The notes under the pieces: model-generated | What the model was told of the DNA's origin: nothing | Database searches by the model: none | Seen by the model: the letters and a program-made list of their open reading frames with translations, nothing else | Origin: Bispira polyomma | Taxonomy: Eukaryota | DNA length: 64,000 nt | Assembly: GCA_965649765.1 (NCBI GenBank) | Contig: OZ287752.1 | Coordinates: forward strand, 76,632,001 to 76,696,000 | Direction: 5' to 3' | Translations under genes and position numbers: made by a program | Part shown: in pieces, positions 4,805 through 41,004 of the stretch | Numbering within the stretch: position 1 is the stretch's first letter | Layout: each line of letters opens with the position of its first letter

Positions 4805-5866
4805 TTAGTGGGATTTAAGTACTTCTGTTGCTACTTTCCTAATAAGTTCAAACCTCTGTTTGCCTAGGTTATAACCTCCATATTTACGAGTTACAATGAG
4901 TATACCTTGAGTAACTTGATTTTCTTGCAACATCTCCATTAGAATTTTGCCTCCAGCCCATTCACCATCATCATTGTGCCCACAAACAGTTGCACCGTCA
5001 ATGTCTATGTAAGTATAGGCATATGCTATGTGGCTGCTATGTAAAATTAACTCATTCTGGTGAAGGGCACGGAGTACCAGATTGGCTTCATTTTTTGTAT
5101 GCACTGGATGAAAATGACCTTGAAATACACTTTGCTTAACTTCTGTCAGGGGTGAATGCAAGATGTGATCAAAGTTGACAGGATCTCCACTGGATATGGT
5201 GTAATCTAAGGTGTTGTGTTTAAAAACTCCGGTTTGGACCTTCGAGTTAACAATCAGCTTGTCTTTAACAAGTTGTATTTTAGTGTTAGAATTGTTTACC
5301 TTGGCCTCGTTCCGCATCTTTACTAACTGTGGTACCTGAACTGTGCGCCTTTCGCAAACTGCCTGGGGAAGTTGTTCACTCATGGAGTATGGAGTGGTCT
5401 TCAGATTTTTAGCAAAGGAGAGAACTATATCTTTTCCTCTTTGTGAGACAAAAGAAACAACAACAGGTCTGGGTTTACTTCCTTTTTTGCCAATACGATG
5501 GGTTACGTCTACTCGGATCTCCCCACCAGGGTTTTCCCTAGAAAATATGAAGCCAGCTGGAATATTTAATGTAGATAACAGCAGGTTGTGTACTACACTG
5601 TAAATGTCTTCCCTATCTTGCTCAGGGAGTTGGTAGAAAATGAGATTTTTTTTCATTTGCTGAGTTTCCATTGATGATACCTTGGCTTCCAATGATAAAA
5701 CTTTTGAATTCAGCCTTGAAACAATCCCATCCGATTCTTGTAATAGGAGTTTCAATTGTCTGTTCTCATTTTGCAGTGCATTTATATCGATTGCTGTTTC
5801 CACTTGTTGATGTTTTAGAATTTGAAGTATTTCATCCACCTTTTGTTTCATTGACATACTCGTCAA
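4805..5866 (-). CDS. L1-type ORF1 protein (coiled coil + RRM/CTD) fused to a C-terminal IMPACT/YigZ (UPF0029) domain
   Basis: N-terminal heptad coiled coil. ORF1p-like motifs KKNLIFYQLPE, THRIGKKGSKPRPVVVSF, SEQLP..ERR. C-terminal ~117 aa (5158-4808) carries KQSVFQGH, SSHIAYAY, NDDGEWAGGKIL, IVTRKYGGYNLGKQRF, matching IMPACT/YigZ motifs. Co-oriented and upstream of LINE ORF2. First real ATG is a few codons after the TTG start. Confidence 0.85.
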   Translation of the reverse strand: MTSMSMKQKVDEILQILKHQQVETAIDINALQNENRQLKLLLQESDGIVSRLNSKVLSLEAKVSSMETQQMKKNLIFYQLPEQDREDIYSVVHNLLLSTLNIPAGFIFSRENPGGEIRVDVTHRIGKKGSKPRPVVVSFVSQRGKDIVLSFAKNLKTTPYSMSEQLPQAVCERRTVQVPQLVKMRNEAKVNNSNTKIQLVKDKLIVNSKVQTGVFKHNTLDYTISSGDPVNFDHILHSPLTEVKQSVFQGHFHPVHTKNEANLVLRALHQNELILHSSHIAYAYTYIDIDGATVCGHNDDGEWAGGKILMEMLQENQVTQGILIVTRKYGGYNLGKQRFELIRKVATEVLKSH

Positions 5867-5980
5867 GTCACCATTCTCTGAGGAATTACCACTGGGATTT
5901 CAGCCTAGGCTAGGTGGACGTATTTCAAGATCTTGTGTAGCAATATCCTATGAAACAGTTTTTGTTTTTATTTGTGTTCT

Positions 5981-11310: not shown

Positions 11311-11475
11311 AATCGAATTGTCATTTACTGAGTCATTTTAGTGTAAATACTTCACAATAAACCTGCAAAGCTGAAAGAACCCTATCGTTGTCAAACCAGA
11401 GTACAGAATCCATAGGTTTTATCTACAAAGAAGTTTTTAACTTATTGTGAGTGGTTATTTAAACATATATTTCAG

Positions 11476-13500
11476 ATTGTCCACGTACTTGTGTTAGTTA
11501 TAACAGAATGTGGGTGTATCCCATGCCCCACAGAAGGCGCAAATATCCAAGGCAAAATTCTGGACTACTCTACAGGACTGCCCATAGCAAGTGCCATTAT
11601 AACAGCCACTGGCTTCGATAATACCTCATCTGATTCATACGGCAGCTTCTTTCTGGTGCTATCTGACACACAAGACAGCCGGCATGTACAGCTTATTGCT
11701 ACTCACATCCATTACACAGATTTACCCAGATATATTGCCATTTCACAACCAGGACAGTCACATATTGAGATCTTTCAAATGATCAAAAAAGAAGAACCTA
11801 TACAAATTGAGTCATCTGAGGACTCTACCCTGCCGCTCTTTGGAAGTTCTCCATCAGCCAAAAGGAAAAGAGCTGCAATAGGAAAAACAGGTAACAAAGA
11901 GCAACACAGATTTAGTGCTAATATTACTATTCCAGAGGACAGTTTTCTACAATTGGATGGCTCACAATATGATGGTAGTGTGAATGCCTCAATCACAAGT
12001 ATTGATACGTCTGACTTTAACGCCATGATAAACGCTCCAGCTGAGATGAGCTACATCAATAATAACGGTGATTTTCAGCCTTTAAGAGGTTATGCTTTGT
12101 TCACGTTAAACTTCATTGGTGCTTTAGTGGGAGAGAGACTGCAACTCCGACATAATATCTGTATTACAATGGAGCTACCTTATAGACTAAATAGTGAAGC
12201 AGCAATGTTTATGTACAATGATAAGTCAGCATCATGGGACAAGAACATTCAACTAAATGTGACTGAAATTGGCACTTCTATTACATCAATATCAGGATCG
12301 TTTTTTCTTCAGCATGATATTTCTTGGTTAATGATTGCCTCCGAGGTGGTATTAGATAACATTTGTTTCTCTAAGATCAAAGTCTATGAAACTAATAACT
12401 ATGATATCCCTGTGACTGACATACCCAATATTAAAATCATTGTCAATGACCAACCCAGTGGCAGTGTTCCAAATTATGGTGAGATTTCGAGTTTTAGGGC
12501 CATCTCAGATTCAGAAAATATTGAAGGATATTGCATTGCACACTCTTGTCAAAGAACCTCATCAGTACGACATTACACAGGTTTTTTTACAGCTGTAGGT
12601 GGAGTGAACTCTGATGTACCTTATCTAACACCAGCTCTAAATCATGAGGGAATCACAAATCAAACCGCAGAGCTTATTGACTATGATATTGATGACATTG
12701 CTGGTATACCACTAATCAGAGCCAAATTAAATTACAACATCATTCCAAAAGGTAACTATGGACCATATTACGACCAACATGATTACAACTGGCAACGATC
12801 AGATACCTGTTCGAAAATTCCTGAAGATCACTTCCGGTTTTACCTTAATAATGCTACCAGTGAAGATGAATCCTGCATCAAAGAAACTGAATTTAGCGTA
12901 CAGGAGGATGTACTGTCAGCCACAGACCCGGAACATATGAACAATCTGGCTTGGTTCAGCAGATCCCAGCGATCCCTGTATGACACCTGTTATGTGAAGG
13001 TATTGGTATCAAGTCCAGAACCGGTTTCCATAAGGGCTCTTAGTAAAGTCGGTAATATCTCTCACGGTGAGGACATCATTGCAGGGGAAACTCTGTATGG
13101 GTTTAGAGATAAATGTCAGCTTGGTGCCATGTGCCTGGAAGTGAAACATCCTGGAAAGGTGGCAGACGGTCAGATGGACTATACCCGCATTGAAATATCA
13201 CATCTAAGAAGTACAGGTAGTGATCTAGCTTGCAGCCTAACCGATATCAAGTGGGAAATAACTGCTGCCTATGGAGAATATATAACTACTTCACCAGGTA
13301 ACCCAGAGTTTCATATGTATTTGAAGAATTCTCCATTTGGGCCAACATTTGGTGTCTACTGTGTCAAAAGTGAGCAAAATAAGCAAACTGCGAGGAATAA
13401 AGCCAAGGCTATGTGTTACAGGGGGGATTATGATGATTCTCTAACTCTACTTGAGAAAGAAAATAGCGTCAATTGGGCTGTGAAATTTGATTGTCAATGA
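11476..13500 (+). CDS. Terminal exon of CILP-like paralog A (upstream exons not in window)
   Basis: Acceptor tttcag| at 11475, phase 0, intact 674 codons. Collinear with exon 9 of the 30737-41004 gene. Furin-type site KRKR at 11860-11871. AATAAA at 13600. Confidence 0.88.
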   Translation: MVHVLVLVITECGCIPCPTEGANIQGKILDYSTGLPIASAIITATGFDNTSSDSYGSFFLVLSDTQDSRHVQLIATHIHYTDLPRYIAISQPGQSHIEIFQMIKKEEPIQIESSEDSTLPLFGSSPSAKRKRAAIGKTGNKEQHRFSANITIPEDSFLQLDGSQYDGSVNASITSIDTSDFNAMINAPAEMSYINNNGDFQPLRGYALFTLNFIGALVGERLQLRHNICITMELPYRLNSEAAMFMYNDKSASWDKNIQLNVTEIGTSITSISGSFFLQHDISWLMIASEVVLDNICFSKIKVYETNNYDIPVTDIPNIKIIVNDQPSGSVPNYGEISSFRAISDSENIEGYCIAHSCQRTSSVRHYTGFFTAVGGVNSDVPYLTPALNHEGITNQTAELIDYDIDDIAGIPLIRAKLNYNIIPKGNYGPYYDQHDYNWQRSDTCSKIPEDHFRFYLNNATSEDESCIKETEFSVQEDVLSATDPEHMNNLAWFSRSQRSLYDTCYVKVLVSSPEPVSIRALSKVGNISHGEDIIAGETLYGFRDKCQLGAMCLEVKHPGKVADGQMDYTRIEISHLRSTGSDLACSLTDIKWEITAAYGEYITTSPGNPEFHMYLKNSPFGPTFGVYCVKSEQNKQTARNKAKAMCYRGDYDDSLTLLEKENSVNWAVKFDCQ

Positions 13501-16812: not shown

Positions 16813-18060
16813 CAAACACAGTCGTTCTGTTATGGCACTGCCCCTTCGTTCATAAAGTAATCCATCAGGGCATCTCTCTGTTCCTTGGCTACTCAGCTAT
16901 GATTTCTGATGTAAACTGGGTTGTGTTAATTTTCCAGCAGTGCATTCTGTGGGAGGGGGAGGGGGGTCATCTGCTGGGTTTGTGTGCTCTCCTCCCTGGT
17001 TGATATTTGCACTTCTGAGCAAGTTTGTGAAGGACTACATAGGCTAGGGTTAAGGTGGCTACCACAGGTGGTTCCTGCTGCATCGTCGAGAGCAAAAGTC
17101 TAAACCTCACCACTAATATTTCAAAGACATTCTCCACCACCCTTTTGCCCTGAGATATCCTGTAGTTAAACATGCATTGATTGGGGTCCGGCCCTTGTCT
17201 GGAAAAGGGTTTCATTATCCAAATTTTTAAGGCAAATTTGTGGTCTCCTATGATGAAATAGGTGGTGGGTGGCCTACCAGGGCTTATGGGTTGAGGAGCA
17301 GGAAAGTTGATACACTGGTCTTCAATCTTTTCCTTCAATTCAGATAGGTTGAAAATCTTGGAACCAGACCAGGAGCCACTGGAACCCAGGTCCACCTATA
17401 TGAAGCGGTACTCAGCAATAACCAGGCCCAGCACAAAGATGGAGTGGAATCACTTGTAGTTGAAGTACTCACTCCCCCCTTTCTTGGACATCTCATTGCT
17501 ATGTGTTTGCCATCTATGGCACCCAGAGCATTGGGGATATTCCAGCTGTCTCTGTATACAGCTGCGACCTTGGGGAGGTGGGGCAGCAGAGAAATTCCTC
17601 CTGGAATTTATCTATGCTAGCCTGGCAAACCTCAGAAACAAACGTGGTGATGGTTGACCAAATGTCTTAAAGTTATTGCAATCTTCAGTCCAGGGGACAG
17701 TGCTTTGCAGTACCAGGTCGTGTTTTTCCCAATCCGGTGGGCCACCCTCCTCTCCAAACCCGAGGTCATCCTCAAAGAGTTCCTATAAGACCATACATAT
17801 TGAGTCTCCATACATGGCAGAAGTGCAGAGTTGTGACTGTGCTTTTTCCTATCCCTGAGCAATGGTTTTATCCAGAACCTCCTTCGTGCTCTGCCTCTTC
17901 GGATTCCTACATTAATATCCTAATTCTGATTCTGTGCTAGTATGTGATTTTGTCTTCTTCTTCGACCCTGATAATCTGTAAATGCAAGTAATTGTATCTG
18001 CATAAATGCTAATAAAGCTTGTAGAATTCCAACCATATCTTTTATGATATGTGGTATCAT
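16813..18060 (-). pseudogene. Harbinger (HARBI1-like, DDE_Tnp_4) transposase, disrupted
   Basis: RRFWIKPLL, ALGAIDGKHI, YFNYK*FHSI, IIGDHKFAL..IMKPF, FNYRISQGKRVVENVFEIL..RF motifs. Confidence 0.9.
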
Positions 18061-23798: not shown

Positions 23799-26254
23799 TT
23801 AACAAGAAAACTTGACAGCCCAGTTATTTAATGTAGTCTCACTAAAATGTACCTTATCATCATTTGTTCCGGTCATGCACATATTCACAGCACGTTGTCT
23901 GGCTAGACCTTTGTCATGTACACCTTTAGCACAGTAGATACCAAAGTCAGGACCGTAGGGAAGATCTCGAAGTTGTAAGGAAAATCCCCCAGGTAACCAT
24001 TCCATGCCATCTGGATATATTTTCATTAATAAATGATTGATGTCCAATGGCATACACAAACCTTGCTCATGTATATGGGCTTGAATATTAAGCAAAGTGT
24101 TTTCATACTCAGATACACTTAGCCCATCTGTTACCAAGCCTGGATGTTTGACCTCAAGACATGATGCCTCAATCTGATGTTCTATACACTTAAAAGCTTT
24201 ACCATAGTCTATAAAATCATGGGATTTGTTTATGTAGCTTGCAGCTGTCAGATTCACAATAGCATGTTCAAGACTCATCTCTACCAGGACTTTGAGGTAA
24301 CAGACATCATATTTGTTTTGGTGAGACCTTGAAAACCACGCTTGAAAGTTTTTGTTTTGCTCTGCCACATTTTCTGGAGGAAATTTAATTTCCTCTAAGG
24401 CATAAGTAGTTGATCCATTTCCCAGATGAGAACAAGATGTTATGGCAGTAACTGTTGTATCCTCTGGTGTTTCTAATATGGTAACTGGTTCTGTTTGTTC
24501 TTCTGTAACACTTGTCATACCAATAACTGTTGTATCCTCTGGTGTTTCTGATGTAGTAATATGTTCTGTTTGTTCCTCTGTATCACTTGTCGTACCAATA
24601 ACTGTTGTATCCTCTGGTGTTTCTGATGTTGTAATATGTTCTGTTTGTTCCTCTGTATCACTTGTCGTACCAATAAGTGTTGTATCCTCTGGTGTTTCTG
24701 ATGTAGTAATATGTTCTGTTTGTTCCTCTGTATCACTTGTCGTACCAATAAGTGTTGTATCCTCTGGTGTTTCTGATGTAGTAATATGTTCTGTTTGTCC
24801 CTCTCTATCACTTGTCGTACCAATAAGTGTTGTATCCTCTGGTGTTTCTGATGTAGTAATATGTTCTGTTTGTTCCTCTAAAACACTTGTCGTACCAATA
24901 ACTGTTGTACTCTCTGGTGTTTCTGATGTAGTAATATGTTCTGTTTGTTCCTCTGTAACACTTGTTATATTATTAACTGTTATATCCTCTGGTGTTTCTA
25001 ATATAGTACTATTTTGTGTTTGTTCTTCTGTAACACTTGTCACATCATTATTAGTTGTGCTATCTATTGCCCTATCTATTGTACTATAGATCCATGGATC
25101 ACCTGAATTTGTTGTGAAATCTCTATCTGTGATTGTCTCTGGTATCTCTGATGCTGTACTGTTTTCAATGACATATTCTGTAGCAAATGTTATATGAATA
25201 TCTATTGTGGCATCTGTTGTTACAGCGTCATTACTTTGCCCCATCAGTTCATCTTGGGTACTTGATATCGCAGTGACTGTTGTGCTGTCTCTTACTTGTA
25301 AAGCTTTACTGTGTGTTTTGTGCTCTTCAGTGGTAACTATGATGGCCTTGTTCTTCTTCATGCCACCCATAAGACTACGCCTTATTTTCATCTGATCTAC
25401 AAACATATTCGTTTAGGTTAGTTTACTTTGGGTATAATGTTGTTTTCAACATGTCTTGTGTCATATCACGACATGAAGTTCACTGATGGAGGATTTCAGA
25501 ACGGGATAGTTGGTCAAGGTTTTTGTCTGCTCTGCAAATCACCATCCTTAAGGAAGTCAGGGCCAAGGGCCACGATTAGACCACAGTGCAATAAAATTAC
25601 TATTTATCCAAAATTGCACACTGCAACAGTTACTAGCACATAGTAATTCCATCAGTTAACACGTAAAAAATTCAAGTAATGTAGGAAATAGGAGTAGATA
25701 CAAACCATGTGGGTGCACCATTAGTTTGACAGAACAGATACTGTTACGTTGACCAAACACATTCTCCGAATACATTGTTAATGACATTCCATCAAAGTAT
25801 CTTGGCACATTTGAGATGAACAGCTTTCCACCGCTGCAATTTGCTAATGATGTTTGCTGATCAACATCAGTTTCTTTTATTTGATGGGTGCAAATCATAA
25901 TGTTTTCATCTGATATCCAGTCTATCTGCACTACATCATTGGGTAAACTTGAGTTACAAACTATTATGGCCCCCTTCCTTTCATGGACATGGACACCAGC
26001 AACTGAAAGAAAACTTTGAGGATATAAATATAGATATACATGTACGTGAAAGACTTTTAAGGAAATGATGTTAGTGAATGTTATTTGCCTGTTGTTTTCA
26101 AGAAAACAAACTTGCCAATAATGCATATATTATGATATAAAACTGGGTTATCGATATGATAGCTAAATTTACCTGTGCAGATATGTAGGCTTAATCCCAA
26201 ACTGCAAGTAATTATATATAATCCATATAAACCATGTCTTAGGTGTTGATCCAT
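23799..26254 (-). CDS. Secreted CILP-C-terminal-domain protein: signal peptide, Ig-like domain, Thr/Glu mucin-like repeats, Cys-rich C-terminal domain (~658 aa, 3 exons)
   Basis: Exons 26254-26173 (MDQHLRHGLYGLYIITCSLGLSLHICT, donor gtaaat), 26002-25706 (phase 1-1 Ig-like exon; ttttctttcag acceptor, gtttgt donor) and 25396-23799 (tttgtag acceptor). Phases are compatible. C-terminus AWFSRS..YDVCYLKVLV..CLEVKHPG..YGPDFGIYC..MC..NWAVKFSC aligns to the two + strand paralogs. Confidence 0.85.
24450..25040 (-). repeat. Coding tandem repeat, 75-bp (25-aa) unit, ~8 copies
   Basis: Unit EEQTEHITTSETPEDTTLIGTTSDT; DNA landmarks recur every 75 nt (24568, 24643, 24718, 24793, 24868, 24943). Confidence 0.95.
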
Positions 26255-30736: not shown

Positions 30737-33700
30737 ATGAGCTGGCAGGGAAAAATGGAAGGAAAACCCTTGTCAGATACTGGATACACCAGTCTGCAAG
30801 AGACTGAGATATCACATGATACTAAATCTGACATAAGTAGCGCTCAAACTGACATCAACAGTACTGAAGAAACTTTGCCATACAGAAAGATGAATGGAGA
30901 CTTTGTGATCCGATTTACTGGAAATAACGAGTTGAAATCAATTGATGAGGACATACCGTATTGTAATAAATCATTTCACTGGGGAGAGGATGGTGACGAG
31001 AGAAGATTTGCTGAAGAATCAGATCATAATGTCAACAATGCCACAAGAAAAGGGCTTCGGGAGAAGAGTCAATCCCATGGAATGTCTTCCTACATGACTA
31101 GCAGTGGGATTGGGCCAACATTTTACCACAACACTGGTCAAGGAGGACATCTATCCGAGCAAGCTATCGGTGGATTTGACAGTCATCAACAACCCGTCAA
31201 TGAAAACAAAGGATACACTGGAAAAAGTCAAGGCTTAACCAATGAAAATGCAGACTGCACTAAACATGTGTATCAAGGTCACTGTGTTCCAACCAGTGAT
31301 TACCCAGAGGAGGATTATCTAACCAGCAGTAATACAGAAACTACTTTTAATGGAGAAGTTCTACAAGATGGCTACAGCTCTGTTAAGCATCATACTGGCT
31401 TATCACAAGGCAGTGGTTATACCAAACCTTTGCAGTCTGGAGACAGTTACAGGAAACTTCAACTCGGAGATGGTGAATATATTCATCCAGATAATGACAT
31501 TAAGATCTACGAAGACTGCTCTCAGGGTGGAAAACAAGATGGCTACCATGAAATTGCTTACAAAGATATAGATCCTGATTACCCAGGATCAATGGGTTAC
31601 ATACTGCAGCCACTACGTAAGCCTGCTCATTTAACACTAGGTGGAGCTACAGTTACTTCTATGGATGATCACGGTTGGTCTGATTGTGTACACTTTCATG
31701 TTTTACATTTCAAACTGTTAAAGTTTTACAAATTATGTTCTTTCTCTTGACAAAATGACTTGTACAAATATGAATTTGTCCAAGTTTGGGTACAGGTAAA
31801 TGAGTGTTATCACTGTACCTTTTTTACAGTATCAGAGGATTATCTGACGTTACCTGAATCAGCTATCAGACCACTACCCAAGCCCCCAAGATCCACCACT
31901 CGGTGTAGCAGACCTTGCCAGTGGAAGGCAGTAGGTGTTGTGATAATTGTGGTGCTGTTGGGTGCCATTATTGGTGGTATACTGATTAGTGGACACAGGG
32001 ATGATACAGAAACAACAACAGGTAGTTGCATGCACTTTTTGTACTGTTGGAATTTCACTAACCTGGATTTAGTTCCATGGTCAGAGAGTCCAGTGACTCA
32101 CAATACAATACAATAAAAAGTATATAAGATACCAGAATCTATCTATTTCACTAACCTGGATTTAGTTCCATGGTCAGAGGGTCCAGTGACTTACAATACA
32201 ATACAGTAAAAAGTATATAAAATGCCAGAATCTATCTAAAAATATGAATTGACACAACAATGAATTAATTGGGTCTGTATATCCTTCATTGAACAAAAAT
32301 GATGTTTCATTTGGAGATTGACAGTTGACAGTTCTTTAATCTGGCAGAAGATCCCTACCAAAGTTGTGCTTCTTTAGTGAAATTTCAGGAACGATCATCA
32401 CCTGCATGTGGCAGAGTAGAAAAGATGGATTCAAGAACTGTGTCATTGCAATTTATAAATAGTACAGTGGCCTAGTACAAGGGAGGTCAATTAATCTGTT
32501 TCTTAAAGAACTCATTATTTTAGTAGATTCAAGAACTGTGTCATTGTATTTTATAGATAGTACAGTGGCCCAGTATAAGGGAGGTCAATTAATCTTTTTC
32601 TTAAAGAACTCATTATTTTAGTAATTTCCCTCAGATAACTAATCATGTTTATCTACTCAGGAAAGTCAATCACAGTTTAAATGTTTTATCTGCTTTAAAA
32701 GCTGGATTTCTGACCTGGCTCGTGACGAAAAAGAGTTGTTGTGTGAAATAGGGAAAAACTTACAAACCCATACTTGTACCGTATTGTTCGTATAATTGCT
32801 ATACATATGCTTAGAATGAACTGTATATTCACAAATATCTATAATAATCATATTACTATACAATGTGCTTATTAATTTTTATTGTAGCCTATTGCATTTC
32901 TTTTATTGTAGCATTGATTTAAGCATAGGAAATTAAATGTACTTTTTCTATATCCATTTTCTGTCTCATAAACTAAGCAAATAAATGTGGCATTTCCTAG
33001 AGTTTTTTTGTTTTTTTTTGCTTTACTTAGCTGTACCAACTCCTGGATTGTCAGGCTGGACAGAGTGGACAGACTGGTCATCTTGTGACAAGACATGTGA
33101 CCAAGGAATACATACCAGGTCACGTGTATGTCGATCAGAAAAGGAAGTGTGTATTGGTCCAACTGAGCAGGCAGAGACTTGTATTGACCAACTCTGTCCA
33201 GTCCCTCGTAAGTTTACAAATCATACGCATCACGTACATACTTAGGGACTCCCATAGAGTGACATAGAGTCATCTCCAAAAAATGTTGAATTTTTAATCT
33301 TCTTCAAAAAATCCCTGAAATTGGAAAAAAGAGTGGTTCATATATAAAAATAAAACTCAAAATATGTAAAAAGGCACACTACACTACATTGTTGAGTTTA
33401 ATTATATTGTTGTTTGTCACTTTTTTTTAGAAAATATGTAACAAGCTGTTTTAAATGGATGTATGTGGTATTATACACTAACAGTTGAATTCGGTTGAAT
33501 GTAACTACATGCTATGATGTTTATGACCAGTGTTATTTGTTTTATAAATGATATATATAAAATTGTTAAATTAACAAGGGTTAAAATGTAATCATTGTAT
33601 TATTAGTATGTTGAAAAAATTAGGCCCTGAAACGCTTTGACATGAACTCTCTATACATGCCCTGAAGACTAAAATGAACTAAGAATGCCCGGAATGCTGT

Positions 33701-36700
33701 ATGTGTAATGGTTTTTCCTTGTTTAGCACGGGGAGTTTGGAGTTCCTGGAGCCAGTGGTCAATCTGTTCAGTGACCTGTGGACCAGGGGTTCAGGTCAGA
33801 ACTCGACATTGTGAGGAGTCTGGTGATAAGGACTGTGTGGGAGATTCTGGACAGCAAAGGGACTGTAACCATGGAAACTGTAAAAGTAGGAAGATTTGTT
33901 TTTGGTTTGAGTATATAAGGCATAATCTTGTATTATTGATTCTGAATGTGAATGTAAAAATACTGTTGTGTCATTTGATATTACATCATCCATTTTTTAG
34001 GCCAAATACTAAACATGAATGCCAAAAAAATCTATTGGGTAATGAATTTTTTTTTAACATTTTGTCTATCTAATCAAGCAACTTTTTTTTCAAAGTGGAT
34101 ATTGTATTGAAATAACGCATTTAATTACCAAATGTGTATCAACAGTGTTTATGTGTTTAAATGTGTAACAATATCACTGAAACTGAAAACAATCCAATGA
34201 ATTTGACTATAAAACGTGGGTATAGCTTTTGTGTAGAAGATATTTTCCTCTGAAATATGTTATGTAGCCACAATAGCTTTAATTAAATATCCTTTAATTT
34301 TTACGTGATTCAATTTGGAGATTTTCTTAAATTTTAAAAGTCACTATTTAGGAATGCAGAAAAGTTGAAATATATACCAGTTGTAATTGTGCTATTCATA
34401 ACTAGTATTTAATATTAAGTAAAAAAAAAATAATATGTATTTGTCCTTACATAAATATTAAATAGTGTACTGTAAGCCTGTAAGGATGGGTGTTAGGCTT
34501 TTTGGAGCAAATTTACTTTAACAGTACCAATTATGTTTACCTTTTTCGAAATGGCAGAAAGATTTGTAGATTTAAATTGTTCTTTTGAAGAACTTTTTAG
34601 ACAATTTGGAAGACAATAAAGCATTAATAGGTAGTTCATGACAGTTAGAAAGAAATAGTTTAGCACAACAAAGGGGCAAAGCTCCCACACCCCTTCTTAA
34701 ACTTTTAAAGTGGACTTAGTGACGGCAAATTGCACTTAATTATTCGGTGAAATTCTTGTATACCACATTGCCATTAAAATAAAAACCTATGTAAATGTAT
34801 GTATCTATATATCTTACACAGACTGTAACTTTTCCTGCCCTGGAGGGGGTGTAGTGATCACTGATGTCACTTGTGACCAGTGTAAATGTAATCAGTCCAG
34901 TACACTTCAGCTCACAGTCACAGATACTAACAACATACCTCTGGATGGGGTCACCATAAGTGATAAGCAGTGGGCAGGAAAACAACTGGCCATCTCAAAC
35001 TCAAATGGACAGATAAAACTAGATGGGGTCTGTAGCGGAACTGTGTTGATGTTCCTTAGAGCTGGCTATGTGACACAGGAGATAACAGTGTCTGTTACTA
35101 TGGATACAAGGATACGCTTGGCTAAAATAGGTTATAAATAAAACGATATGCAGTAGGACCTTTATTATCCAAACATGTTGGGAGAGCAATAAAAGGTTCA
35201 TATAAAATAGAAGATGCATTTCAGTGTGTAAAACAATAGGACGTCAATTGGGGAGAGTAAAACCGAATGTTTGGGTTACAAGAAGTTTCAGATAATAGAG
35301 GTTCTACTGTATTAGTAATGCTTATTAGTCGTAATGTTTTCACTTAAAACGAATTTTTAGGTTTTTTATTTTTTGGGGGTTTGCTAAAGCAATAGTGAAC
35401 AATTTAAACCAGACTGAGAATTTAAAAGTTTCCTGGTTGTTTAGTTGAAAATGATGAGAAATGATCAAATTCAATGAATTCCATATATTTACTTTACATA
35501 TCCCTCTACTATATTGTAAATGTTTGAAACTTTATTCCATCAAAATTGCTACTTATAAAATTAACAGTGTTTCTTGTATCCTAGTTCTACTCTACATAAC
35601 TGCCCACCCACAAAACAAGCTTAGATTGACAGGAGAATCAGTCCGATTATGCTGTACTGCAGAGGGCAGCCCACCGCCTGAGTACTTTGAATGGTATTTC
35701 CTTGGATATTATTTTGCAGTTGAACCCATTTTAATCGAAGCTCAAGGAACCATGAGAAATAACTCAGGATTTCTACTTAACAGGGCAGATTTTTTATAAA
35801 GGCATATAATGAAATTGTATTGAATATAAAAGAGTTTTACTTAAAAGGGTTTGATTGCAGTTATTTTTGATGTGGTTCAACTTTACCATTGCTAGATTGT
35901 ATCTATATTGTTCAACCGAAGTTATATATATTTAATTAATATTTGACCACTTTTAAAGCTCTTATCTCTCAACAGCCATCCTACCTTGCTGCTCACCTTT
36001 CTTTCCCTTCAGAGGGGAAAGATACTTTGTGTTTCCTCAGTCAAACCTGCCAAGAGGGCTGGATCCAGAACTTTCTCTGTTGCTACCGCTTTGTTATGGA
36101 ATAGGCTCCCAGCTGAGCTTAGATCACTTAAAACACTTTCTGGGTTAAGAAAAAGCTTGAAACATATCTAATCAAACTCCCTTATCTTCCTTAGTTCCCT
36201 CCATGTACACCCACGATCTTTTCTTACCACCTTGGCTATGCTTTTTTTGACTTCTCGATTGGTTGATTATATTGTTGTAGTTTAGAAGATGCCTTACATC
36301 AATCAATAAAGCGTGTCAAATACCATATACATCACAAAGGGTGTTACCTACCTCAGTAACTCACCAGTATACTTGTACATACCACCGTCATCCAAGCAGT
36401 TGAAATTGAGCACCAGTGTAAGTTTTTGCTCACACATGTTAGTTTATGTTATCCAGTTAGGGACTGTATAACCAAACAATGGCTATGGTAGCCATGATTT
36501 AGTTGATGTTGTTTGTAATGTATATCACAGGTATCGAGATGGGATATTTGTGAAAGACATTTGGGGTGACAATTACACCAGTGAATTGTCAGTGAGCTCC
36601 CTGAGCCAAACGAATGATGCTGGAGGGTACACATGTAAGGCCCATAACAGATTCAGTGCAGTCACTTCATATCCTGGGACACTGGTCATAAATAGTAAGA

Positions 36701-39700
36701 TTTTTTTCAGTTGCTAAGTTGGGGTTTAACATTAATTTTGACACGTTTTTCAGTCATATAATGATGTGCAGGATCTCATAGCAGGTTAGTTGGTCTAGGG
36801 TTTTTTTGTGCTCCAAACCACCAGCCTTCAGCAAGTCTACTTCCGCCCATACATGCCATACAGTCGAGATTCAAACCCATGACTACAGAGGTAGGAAGGC
36901 GAGAGTGTTACCTCTACACCACTGAGGCCCATATATGGTACAAAGTGAATGGCCCAGGGTCATCAAGCAATTCAGGAAGTTTCTCAATATCATCCAATTA
37001 GATTCCATGGAACAATATTTCCAGCTAATCAAAATGTTTTGAAGTTAAAAATAAGAATCGTTTTGGAATACCAGCCCTAAATCTTTAACATATCGCATTA
37101 ACCGTGGAATTAGCTAACCCTATGAAATAATGACACTAAACAAGACAAAAACGTGTACATGTGTAGACGTGATGAAAGGTTCTGCACTGAAGCCAGCGGC
37201 CCACAGTAAGGAACTACCACATTTCTCACATAGGCATTGACAGGATTCGAACTCACGCCGCCCAGAGGTGAGAGACCAGTGATTGTGAAGCACAATGCTT
37301 GCTAACCACTAGGCCACCACGGCCCCAGATATTTTAGTACAGCAACTGGAAGAGCAGGAATGAGTTCATCAACTTGAATATTTTACAATAGAAGTTTGCA
37401 TCAAATACATGTTTTTACACTATATGATATAGCACATAGTGTCTATAATCACTACACTTACAATTGCTTTCTGGGGCCACGGTGGCCTAGTGGTTACATC
37501 AAAGAATTTGCTTCACTATCACTGGCCTCTGACCAATGTGGGTTTCTATCCTGTTCCCTCCTTTATCTGGAAAAGTTTGACAGGTACTAGCCACTATAGG
37601 CCGGTGTTTTACAGTGTTTCAGCATTGGTTTCCTCCACCATTCAATCTGGCTGCTGTAATATGATCTAAGCCATTGCAAGAAATGTAAAAACTCAGCTAT
37701 ATCTAATTTTAATTTGTTTTTGTGTTGACTTTTCCATCAGATGCCATATCGGCTTTCTGTCAGACATCTCTACAGTCTAAATCTATCACTATTAACAACT
37801 GTGTGGATAATAAACCTGTACAAGTAGACGTTGGGAAGTGTGAACCTCTGCCATGCCGCAATACTAACTCTGACAATGATGACAGCTCTTGTGGCAACAA
37901 AGGCGGACTTTGCTGTGGACCAAAATCTACAGCTACAGATACAGTAGAATGTGGTGTAAGTTACTCCTTATACAGACATATTACATACATCCATGACTGA
38001 ATCTATAGAATTGCAAAACTTGAAAGCTACTCAGTAGTGCAAATTTTATTGCTATTGGAATTTTGATTAATAAATATAGTTACCTCAGCCGCAAAAAGTG
38101 ATATAGTATCCTCAACGAGGCCTATGAAATGGTACACCTGTTTTACACACACACTAGGTCATCGAGAATGTGTACACTGTGAGATTGACATCCCTTCTCA
38201 GATTGTTAAGGTCACCATATAGCTTTTTCAGCATGTGTGCTGAGCCCATAGAGATATGCTAGCAAATTTACCGGAATTCCAAGTACTACATTTTATGACA
38301 GATGATCATTACTGAAAATCATCACATGACTAGGCTCTGTGGCTTTAACAACTGTTATGTAAAGGTGTCTACACGCTAATTTCATTTTCCTGTACCTGCT
38401 GTCATTTTGGGTATAACTATAGTCCTTGTATTGTAGATGTCCATAAATGACTTTCGTCCTGATACGTTGGTCAAAGTCAGATATATTAAATTGTGCTAGA
38501 TAGAGTCAATTCCACTTCATTTTCTCACACAGAGGGTGTTTGAATTGCTGCATTTGTTGTCCAAAAATGTCCGTCCGACAGAGCGATTTTAATTTAATTT
38601 TATTCTCAACCCGATTTTAACCAACCTAGATCCCACTTCACCCCAGATATGTTCTGAAATTTTATGAACAATTCTTACCTGGCCTATGCCACATCCCTCC
38701 ACCAAATTTGACTGAAATTGTTTCAGTCAGGTATGTGTAATCTTGATGACAAAGAAACCGTTGGACACAGGTAAAATTCTAACATCCTCAGCAAAACATA
38801 TGACTTGAATTGTCATATACTAGGTCATTTTGGTGAACCGTTACTACTTCCCAATAAACCTGCAAAGCTAAGAGTACTTTTATGTTGTCAAATCATATAG
38901 TACAGAATCCAAACTTTTGTTTTACAAAAGGGTTTGTAAATTATTGCCAGTGTTATTTAAACATATATTTCAGACTGTCCACGTACTTGTGTTAGTTATA
39001 ACAAAATGTGGGTGCATCCCATGCCCCACAGAAGGCACGAATATCCAAGGCAAAATTCTGGACTACTCTACAAGAATGCCCATAGCAAGTGCCATTATTA
39101 CAGCCATTGGCTTCGAGGCAGGAAGAACCTCATCTGATTTTGAGGGCAGCTTCTTTATGGTGCTATCTGACACACAAGACAGTCGGCATGTACAGCTTAC
39201 TGCCACTCATATCCATTACACAGATTTACCCAGATCAATTTCCATTTCACAACCAGGACAAGCACACATCGAGATCTTCCAAATGATCGAAAAAGAAAAA
39301 CCTATACAAATTGAGTCCTCTGAGGATTCTACCCTGCCACTCCTTGGAAGTTCTCCATCAGCAAGAAGGAAAAGAGCTGCAACAGGAAAAACCAATCAAG
39401 AGCAATACAGTTTCAATTCTAATATTTCTATTCCAGGGGACAGTTTTCTGACACTAAATGGTTCCGAATATGATGGTAGTGTGAATGCATCAATTACAAG
39501 TATCGATACGTCCGACTTTAACGCCATGATAAACGCTCCAGCTGGGATGAATTACATCAATAATAACGGTGATTTCCAGCCTTTAAGAGGTTATGCCTTG
39601 TTTACATTAAACTTTATTGATGCCTCAGTGGGAGAGAGGCTGCAACTTCGACATAATATCAGTATTACAATGGAGCTACCTTATAGACTAAATGGTGAAG

Positions 39701-41004
39701 CAGCAATGTTTATGTACAATGATCAGTCAGCAACATGGGACAAAAACATTCAACTGAACGTGTCTGAAACCGACACTTCTACTACAACAGCAATATCAGG
39801 ATCGTTTTTTGTCCAGCAGGATATTTCGTGGTTAATGATTGCTGCGGAGGTCGTATTGGACGACATTTGCTTCTCTAAGATCAAAGTGTATGAAAATAAT
39901 AACTATGATAACCTAGTGACTTACATACCCAATATTAAAATCATTGTCAATGACCAACCCAGTGGCAGTGTTCCAAATTATGGTGAGATTTCGAGTTTTA
40001 GGGCCATCTCAGATTCAGGAAATGTTGAGGGATATTGCATTGCACACTCTTGTCAAAGAACCTCATCAGTACGCCATTACACAGGTTTACTTACAGCTGA
40101 AGGTGGAGTGAACCCTGATGTGCCTTATCTAACACCAGCTCAACATCATGAGGGAATCACAGATCAAACTGCAGAGCTTATCAACTATGATATTGATGAC
40201 ATTACTGGTATACCACTAATCAGAGCCAAATTAAAGTACAACATCATTCCAAAAGGTAACTATGGACCATATTACGACCAACATATTTACAACTGGCAAC
40301 GATCAGATACCTGTTCGAAAATCCCTGAAGATCACTTCCGGTTTTACCTTAATAATGCTACCAGTGAAGATGAATCCTGCATCAAAGAAACTGAATTTAG
40401 CGTACAGGAGGATGTACTGTCAGCTACAGACCCGGAACATTTGAATAATCTGGCTTGGTTCAGCAGATCCCAACGATCCCTGTATGACACCTGTTATGTG
40501 AAGGTATTGGTATCAAGTCCAGAACCGGTTTCCATAAGAGTTCTCAGTAAAGTGGGTAATATCTCTCATGGTGAGGACATCATAGCAGGGGAAACCCTGT
40601 ATGGGTTTAGAGATAAATGCCAGCTCGGTGCCATGTGCCTAGAAATAAAACATCCTGGAAAGGTGGCAGACGGTCAGATGGACTATACCCGCATTGAAGT
40701 ATCGCACCTAAGAAGTCCAGGTAGTGATATAGCTTGCAGCCTAGCTGATATCAAGTGGGAAATGACTGCTGCATATGGAGAATATATACCTACTTTACCT
40801 GCTGACCCAGAGTTCCATATGTATTTGAAGGATTCTCTATTTGGTCCGACATTTGGTGTCTACTGTGTCAAAAGTGAGCAAAATAAGCAAACTGCGAGGA
40901 ATAAAGCCAAGGCTATGTGTTACAGGGGGGATTATGATGATTCTCTGACTCTACTGGAGATGGAAAATAGCATCAACTGGGCTGTGAAATTTGACTGTCA
41001 ATGA
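30737..41004 (+). CDS. Type II transmembrane CILP-like protein (paralog B), 9 exons, ~1430 aa
   Basis: Exons 30737-31673, 31830-32021 (TM AVGVVIIVVLLGAIIGGILISG), 33031-33207 (TSP1), 33727-33885 (TSP1), 34822-35130 (Cys-rich + carboxypeptidase-regulatory-like), 35585-35693 and 36531-36694 (Ig: HPQ..VRLCC.AEGSP..W...DAGGYTCKAHN), 37741-37955 (Cys-rich, CCGP), 38974-41004. All introns are GT-AG with matching phases; total 4293 nt. Furin site RRKR at 39364-39375. Domain order matches the CILP family. Confidence 0.9.
32052..32237. repeat. Tandem duplication, ~93-bp unit x2, intron 2
   Basis: atttcactaacctggatttagttccatggtcagag...ccagaatctatct repeated directly. Confidence 0.9.
32429..32623. repeat. 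Tandem duplication, ~97-bp unit x2, intron 2
   Basis: gattcaagaactgtgtcattg...aagaactcattattttagta repeated directly. Confidence 0.9.
35151..35309. mobile_element. MITE family A copy
   Basis: CAGTAGGACCT...AGGTTCTACTG|TA. Confidence 0.75.
35950..36320 (+). mobile_element. CR1/L2 LINE 3' end fragment
   Basis: AGSRTFSVATALLWNRLPAELRSLKTLSGLRKSLK is typical of the L2/CR1 ORF2 C-terminus. Confidence 0.75.
36715..36930 (-). mobile_element. tRNA-derived SINE, degraded
   Basis: Minus strand begins GGGCCTCAGTGGTGTAGAGG, has a B-box-like GGGTTTGAATCTC and ends ..tgttaaacccc. Confidence 0.55.
37175..37326 (-). mobile_element. tRNA-derived SINE (same family as 10582-10833), 5' part
   Basis: Near-identical to 10690-10833; A box GGTGGCCTAGTGG, B box GAGTTCGAATCC. 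Confidence 0.85.
37473..37700 (+). mobile_element. tRNA-derived SINE, related family
   Basis: GGGGCCACGGTGGCCTAGTGGTTA head; internal tttcctccacca; similar to decayed copies at ~41423 and ~13895. Confidence 0.65.

Follow-up and report, generated by a model that had tools for sequence, protein, structure and literature searches.

A predicted secreted protein with a mucin-like stalk and a terminal CILP_C domain, encoded head-to-head with a CILP gene in Bispira polyomma

The main gene analyzed in this study, X1, lies in a 64,000-nt stretch of the B. polyomma genome (here the window) and is read on the minus strand as exons 26254-26173, 26002-25706, and 25396-23799 (82, 297, and 1598 nt), whose in-frame join gives 658 amino acids and a stop codon. 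The introns, of 170 and 309 nt, both have GT-AG borders. The predicted product consists, in this order, of a 27-codon leader exon, a 99-codon exon of phase 1-1, about 320 Thr/Ser-rich residues including tandem repeats, and a Cys-containing C-terminal domain. The features of X1 are as follows.

26173..26254, minus strand: exon 1, leader, 27 codons plus 1 nt (open frame, GT donor; same exon and donor in the paralog X2)
25706..26002, minus strand: exon 2, Ig-like domain (Atlas feature matches, AlphaFold2 model, register with the Ig domain of the neighbour)
23799..25396, minus strand: exon 3, Thr/Ser-rich spacer, repeats, CILP_C, and stop codon (acceptor conserved in X2)
25377..25388, minus strand: KIRR basic patch, residues 130-133 (read in X1; not conserved in X2)
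24449..25041, minus strand: eight 75-bp (25-aa) Thr/Glu tandem repeats, mucin-like acidic stalk (TRF)
23802..24461, minus strand: CILP_C (PF23599), 8 Cys, predicted fold containing a beta-sandwich (Pfam score, AlphaFold2, dN/dS against X2)

An earlier note on this DNA had proposed a three-exon gene at this place, and the single open frame and the GT-AG introns bear it out, the spliced transcript being a prediction. No RNA run was listed for X1, and its splicing is likewise predicted. The segment 25060-26900 was recovered in one contig with 0 differences in three DNA runs of one study, from which this assembly may derive; these contigs are unspliced across both X1 introns and are uninformative on expression. 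No AATAAA or ATTAAA was found within 1 kb past the stop codon. We take X1 to be an intact and functional gene. Intron 2 also contains a short, very high-copy element (window 25427-25550), where the summed contig depth exceeds that of the flanks by a factor of about 40-60; the intron of X2 can be aligned over this stretch.

The paralog X2 was found by a genome search with the last domain of X1. It is located about 40 kb upstream of X1, outside the window.

G000:C5 about 76,616,111-76,630,600, upstream of the window: X2 and the 5' exons of its neighbour CILP-A

X2 matches X1 in its three exons, their splice sites, and their phases, and has an open frame of 639 amino acids, without KIRR. At a divergence of dS about 0.3, the leader shows a dN/dS ratio of 0.17 between the two genes (27 codons, p=0.017), exon 2 one of 0.48 (93 codons, p=0.053), and CILP_C one of 0.31 (209 codons, p=1.6e-5). 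All three values are below 1, that of the Ig-like exon at p=0.053 only, and they support purifying selection on X1.

The best 19-residue hydropathy window of the X1 leader scores 1.67 (residues 13-31), and in both X1 and X2 small residues are compatible with a -3/-1 cleavage site. We therefore predict a signal peptide cleaved near residue 29, and the X1 product is likely secreted. In exon 2, the B-strand Cys43 and Trp58 of the C-strand align with the Ig domain of the neighbouring CILP and are kept in X2, whereas the position of the F-strand Cys is Met in both copies, in register with the same Ig, leaving the canonical B-F disulfide without a partner. The Met at the second Cys position of an Ig-like exon, read in the earlier note, is thus seen in both paralogs. 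Cys65, Cys83, and Cys117 are also common to X1 and X2.

Several comparisons indicate that exon 2 probably encodes a divergent Ig domain. Its language-model features (Atlas) point to a V/I-set Ig (0.94, with 170 of 256 features shared), and all ten named matches belong to one clan. An AlphaFold2 model built from two sequences is weak (pLDDT 67); searched against known folds, this weak model gave a best Foldseek E of 0.09 and a best VIA Z of 4.9 (rmsd 3.0 over 67 aligned residues), nearly all of the listed matches being members of the Ig superfamily. The Pfam scan of X1 exon 2 gave no match, and a genome search with this exon returned two matches only, X1 and X2. A recent copying of the neighbour's Ig was considered and rejected, since BLASTP of the X1 Ig against the neighbour, CILP-B, gave no match at E<10.

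After the Ig-like domain, the KIRR patch is not supported as a processing site. The furin consensus needs Arg at P4, which KIRR does not have, and X2 is without a dibasic pair there; a conserved cleavage site was rejected on the latter ground.

The repeats that follow are close to the approximately eight 25-aa Thr/Glu units of the earlier note: TRF reports a 75-bp unit in 7.9 copies with 92% matches. Full units number 8 in X1 and 10 in X2. The X1 block is 40% Thr+Ser, 25% Asp+Glu, and 0.5% Lys+Arg; over both copies Thr+Ser make up 40-44% and acidic residues 23-25%, basic residues being nearly absent. With this composition the stalk is probably O-glycosylated and, if extended, would reach about 50 nm (203 residues, taking 0.25 nm for each).

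The stalk runs straight into the first Cys of the C-terminal domain. Scanned alone, this domain matches PF23599 with 54.7 bits in X1 (model positions 2-199) and 60.5 bits in X2 (4-199), the cut-off being 27. It is easily missed, as neither the whole exon-3 frame nor the whole of P0001, a relative described below, gives a Pfam match, and a genome search for the family left X1 and X2 unlisted. The last approximately 190 residues of X1 are 37% identical to CILP-B (E 2e-29), and CILP_C of X1 is 35% identical to CILP-A (alignment A1); the alignment of this region with both neighbours noted earlier was thus recovered, along with all the motifs quoted for it. The closest full-length matches in the genome are these neighbours (34-35%), against 20-29% for seven other loci and 31-33% for two partial rows. 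No CILP_5th, CILP_8th, or carboxypeptidase-regulatory-like domain precedes CILP_C in X1. Exons 2 and 3 likewise gave no Pfam match to TSP1, and BLASTP against CILP-B matched the last domain only.

An AlphaFold2 model of CILP_C from 30 sequences has pLDDT 89 and pTM 0.87, which supports folding of the domain as a unit. Foldseek, a check proposed in the earlier note, found no match to this model at E<=0.001. The best VIA match was a bacterial adhesin (Z 6.4, rmsd 3.1, 96 aligned) followed by generic beta-sandwiches, that is, no clear match. A sequence search of PDB gave one weak match (E 0.15), and the Atlas search yielded no named relative.

Each X gene faces a CILP gene. This head-to-head cassette is present as a tandem duplicate, X2/CILP-A and X1/CILP-B, with ATG-to-ATG distances of 2154 and 4483 bp, respectively, and we infer that the intergenic stretch of 2-4.5 kb co-regulates X and CILP. 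The features of the neighbours in the window are as follows.

30737..41004, plus strand: CILP-B, 9 exons, 1430 aa (all introns GT-AG, one open frame, Pfam matches on the exons)
30737..31673, plus strand: first coding exon of CILP-B, most of the predicted 345-aa cytoplasmic tail, 19 Tyr
31830..32021, plus strand: CILP-B exon with the predicted type II transmembrane helix (in CILP-A and CILP-B only, 79% identical)
11416..13500, plus strand: open frame with the last exon of CILP-A, partner of X2

CILP-B comprises a 345-aa hydrophilic region, a hydrophobic helix, two TSP1 domains, a CarboxypepD_reg-like domain, an Ig domain, CILP_5th, a furin-type site, CILP_8th, and CILP_C; the furin-type basic sites of the neighbours read RRKR/KRKR. 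We predict that it is a type II membrane protein with a cytoplasmic tail rich in Tyr motifs. The tail contains six Yxx[LIV] motifs versus 2.4 in shuffled sequences (p=0.022) and eleven [DEG]Y versus 4.8 (p=0.001), a modest excess for patterns that were picked after viewing the sequence. Between CILP-B and CILP-A the dN/dS ratio of the tail is 0.53 over 244 codons (p=0.006), and a search for relatives of the tail found none among 3641 candidates. A deletion of 13 nt near codon 56 shifts the reading frame of the CILP-A tail, and a new in-frame ATG comes after it (L044:625-1368 and the sequence directly upstream, G000:C5 about 76,621,533-76,622,470). The 54 codons ahead of the deletion have dN/dS 1.19, and the part past it is still under purifying selection.

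Other sequences were observed around CILP-A. A 364-aa open frame on the minus strand (window 4805-5899), with a coiled-coil N-terminus and a UPF0029 (IMPACT-like) C-terminal domain (72 bits), sits in a large CILP-A intron beside LINE-like endonuclease and reverse-transcriptase fragments and is possibly a LINE ORF1. Between CILP-A and X1 (window 16967-17919, minus strand) lie broken fragments resembling a transposase, by eye of the Harbinger/DDE type.

Relatives of both genes of the cassette were identified outside this genome. An unnamed ENA protein from another assembly, P0001 (one match among 148 candidates), has a Thr-rich stalk and CILP_C and is 50% identical to X1, with a repeat unit that differs, being roughly 14 aa. 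It forms one clade with X1 and X2 (support 100/99). The second protein, P0002, is 63% identical to the last exon of CILP-B, of which it is the orthologue. All eight Cys of the X1 CILP_C are kept in P0001 and P0002. CILP_C identity is 50% between X1 and P0001 and 68% between CILP-B and P0002, indicating that the domain changes faster in X. Both proteins list a longest contig of 582,006 bases, and from this shared figure only the two genes are probably linked in the second species; metagenome scans with P0001 and with P0002 confirmed no locus. No longer named homologue was found among 5048 candidates (1286-3670 aa covered). One further protein, P0011, is an unrelated repeat protein and was excluded from every alignment.

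In the B. polyomma genome, CILP_C belongs to an expanded family. Of 16 places encoding it, two are of the X type, nine of the CILP type, four of a type that we call Y, and one unclassified; with three more from the family search the total is at least 19. The CILP-type places are those with further CILP domains or CILP-type upstream sequence, four of the nine being judged by eye from the last exon only. In the tree, several places each have a single unnamed ENA protein as counterpart. The Y type occurs in four copies at G000:C5:58,742,432-58,788,430 (L031-L035), at least one of them with duplicated or disturbed exons. The Y model has six GT-AG exons encoding 438 aa: a leader, a Cys- and beta-rich region of about 200 aa that has no Pfam match, and CILP_C. 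Even at full sensitivity, a profile of the CILP last exon matches only CILP_C positions at the Y loci, and P0006 is a likely orthologue of the Y-type CILP_C. By these gene models, CILP_C is reused on at least two unrelated non-CILP N-termini (X and Y) in one genome.

Separately, a rearranged CILP locus was found at G000:C5:57,951,000-57,975,400 (L026-L028), where a CILP on the minus strand, with a frameshifted last exon, faces exons for TSP1, TSP1, CarboxypepD_reg-like, and Ig on the plus strand. A lone CILP_C exon lies another 15 kb along; no middle domains were found with it.

These data separate the parts of the proposal, made in the earlier note, that the C-terminal region is an independently shuffling module. 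Reuse on at least two non-CILP N-termini and the predicted folding as a unit agree with it. Its boundary, on sequence comparison, is not new, as Pfam PF23599 already defines it, and no symmetric exon cassette is seen. Exon-cassette shuffling of CILP_C was rejected, as the domain lies mid-exon both in X (acceptor phase 1) and in CILP-B (acceptor phase 0). The origin of X from the neighbouring CILP is suggested weakly: the two are sisters with support 88/73 in one tree, from which four of 30 rows shorter than 150 aa had been dropped, and with 75/61 and a long-branch warning in a second, from which three long rows were also dropped and to which Y1 was added. A grouping of X with Y is not rejected (p-AU 0.49).

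We suggest, with a probability of roughly 0.4, that X is a soluble, stalked display of CILP_C, a counterpart of the adjoining membrane CILP that buffers or bridges a partner shared by the two. X would be secreted, with its Ig-like domain joined through the acidic, probably O-glycosylated stalk to CILP_C, which would be presented as a free binding tip in the extracellular space common to the head-to-head membrane CILP. CILP_C would here act as an interaction domain. Since X would carry the outermost domain of its neighbour and neither anchor nor tail, its extracellular partner would be that of the neighbour or a related one, which X could buffer or bridge as a soluble counterpart or decoy, while the Ig end might tether it in matrix or mucus. 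The predicted type II topology and Tyr-rich tail of the neighbour give the decoy idea a concrete partner. In favor of a soluble counterpart are the conservation of X2 and the selection on both copies, the duplication of the whole cassette, the clade with P0001, the probable linkage in the second species, the eight Cys shared with P0001 and P0002, the neighbours being the closest full-length matches to the X1 domain in the genome, and the complete CILP-B frame with transmembrane helix and Tyr motifs; against it are the weak sister relation, the p-value of the Ig exon, the deletion in CILP-A, and the modest excess of Tyr motifs. Further, as CILP_C of X is only about 35% identical to that of the neighbour and changes faster, the two may no longer share a ligand. 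A stronger version is unlikely in our judgment, namely that a CILP matrix protein has turned into a type II signalling receptor with Tyr motifs in this invertebrate lineage, the co-regulated head-to-head X being a soluble mucin-stalk decoy showing only its ligand-binding CILP_C tip. If this were true, CILP_C would be mobile and ligand-binding, with at least two cases of reuse within a single genome.

An acidic stalk would suit a purely structural role just as well. X could be a glycoprotein of mucus, cuticle, or biomineral matrix that works independently of its neighbour, with the polyanionic stalk binding water and Ca2+, CILP_C and the Ig domain anchoring or cross-linking, and the linkage marking the place of origin only. 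This is the main rival reading, possible though on balance doubtful. The Thr/Ser-rich, acidic composition of the repeat block in X1 and X2 suits such a protein, as does the free variation of repeat number and unit (8 versus 10 units, and that of about 14 aa in P0001), and vertebrate CILPs are described as matrix proteins in the available text of PMC12839030. Head-to-head pairing has nevertheless been kept through duplication, probably also in the second species, and the literature searched, taken without supplements, yielded no link of CILP to shell matrix. A different topology, with the N-terminal stretch as an uncleaved signal anchor, would make X a type II surface mucin that lifts CILP_C over the glycocalyx and serves in adhesion or as a non-signalling co-receptor. 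The hydropathy peak of the leader would allow this, and an N-anchored stalk with a distal head resembles the predicted topology of the neighbour. We nevertheless find it distinctly improbable: the segment is weakly hydrophobic and has His, Thr, and Cys, the small residues fit cleavage in both paralogs, and the segment is encoded by a short phase-1 leader exon, which is typical of secreted Ig-superfamily proteins.

Head-to-head linkage, along with the predicted type II topology and Tyr motifs of the neighbour, might also suggest a linked ligand-receptor pair in which X binds CILP-B directly and triggers phosphorylation of its tail. We rate this as very unlikely. A predicted complex of the X1 CILP_C with post-furin CILP-B gave an ipSAE of 0.00 in two runs, made without alignments and with an uncertain partner fold, and weighs neither for nor against this reading. 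Vertebrate CILP is cut at a conserved furin site, which frees a C-terminal fragment (available part of PMC12839030); if CILP-B were cut in the same way, its CILP_C could be released from the half that is anchored. The available text of PMC5700204 gives no role for the C-terminal fragment. Finally, X could be a decaying, non-functional by-product of partial duplication, as no transcript was seen and breaks or rearrangements affect other CILP loci of this genome (for instance, the frameshift at L007). This is hardly credible given two paralogs intact at the observed dS with conserved splice sites, the constraint on CILP_C (dN/dS 0.31), and the intact relative P0001 elsewhere. Should X prove only a lineage-specific mucus or matrix protein, it would be a case of ordinary domain reuse.

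Among proteins with a mucin-like region, the gel-forming mucins polymerise through VWD and cystine-knot domains, and exons 2 and 3 of X have no Pfam match to either. Proteins of the TIM/KIM-1, fractalkine, and lubricin type display a folded head on a mucin stalk. X is similar in having such a head and a Thr/Ser-rich tandem-repeat spacer of variable copy number; it differs in its head, which is CILP_C, in a stalk rich in Glu and poor in Pro (4%), and in the absence of a C-terminal transmembrane segment from the model. As in soluble decoy receptors, such as osteoprotegerin and IL-18BP, X would have an outer domain in common with a linked, predicted membrane protein with Tyr motifs and would be without its anchor and tail, as judged from gene models only; it differs in the identity of only about 35% in the shared domain, and the likeness is one of layout only.

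Like vertebrate CILP1 and CILP2, X starts with a predicted leader, contains a single Ig-like domain, and ends in CILP_C, but it is without TSP1, CarboxypepD_reg-like, CILP_5th, and CILP_8th domains and the furin site, and has the Thr/Glu repeat stalk instead. By its domain content X is thus not a full CILP1/2 protein (TSP1, middle domains, and furin site being absent), yet it carries a true CILP_C. The neighbours resemble CILP2, which likewise has TSP1, Ig, CILP_5th, CILP_8th, CILP_C, and a furin-type basic site according to the available text of PMC12839030; the same text gives CILP2 a 21-aa signal peptide, as against the predicted type II anchor and 345-aa tail in the neighbours. The accessible parts of PMC5700204 and PMC9722982 call it unclear what the vertebrate C-terminal fragment does, and in human CILP1/2 this fragment was at one time regarded as a nucleotide pyrophosphohydrolase, an activity that it was later found not to have (PMC12839030 and PMC5700204, each as available in part). 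A search of the literature, taken without supplements such as shell or mucus proteome tables, found no paper on an invertebrate, membrane-anchored, or stalked CILP.

Three observations are new with respect to these systems. Judged from the predicted proteins, the combination of a stalk with CILP_C also exists in another assembly (P0001), and CILP_C ends an unrelated secreted protein, Y, in four copies. The genes of the X and Y types are natural constructs isolating CILP_C, a domain with a confident model and no clear match to a solved fold, and are direct material for finding its partners. Finally, each copy of X is head-to-head with a CILP predicted to have a type II anchor and a tail rich in Tyr motifs, unlike the secreted vertebrate CILP. 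If this holds, a membrane-anchored CILP with a Tyr tail and a soluble stalked partner would extend a family of secreted matrix proteins into cell-surface signalling.
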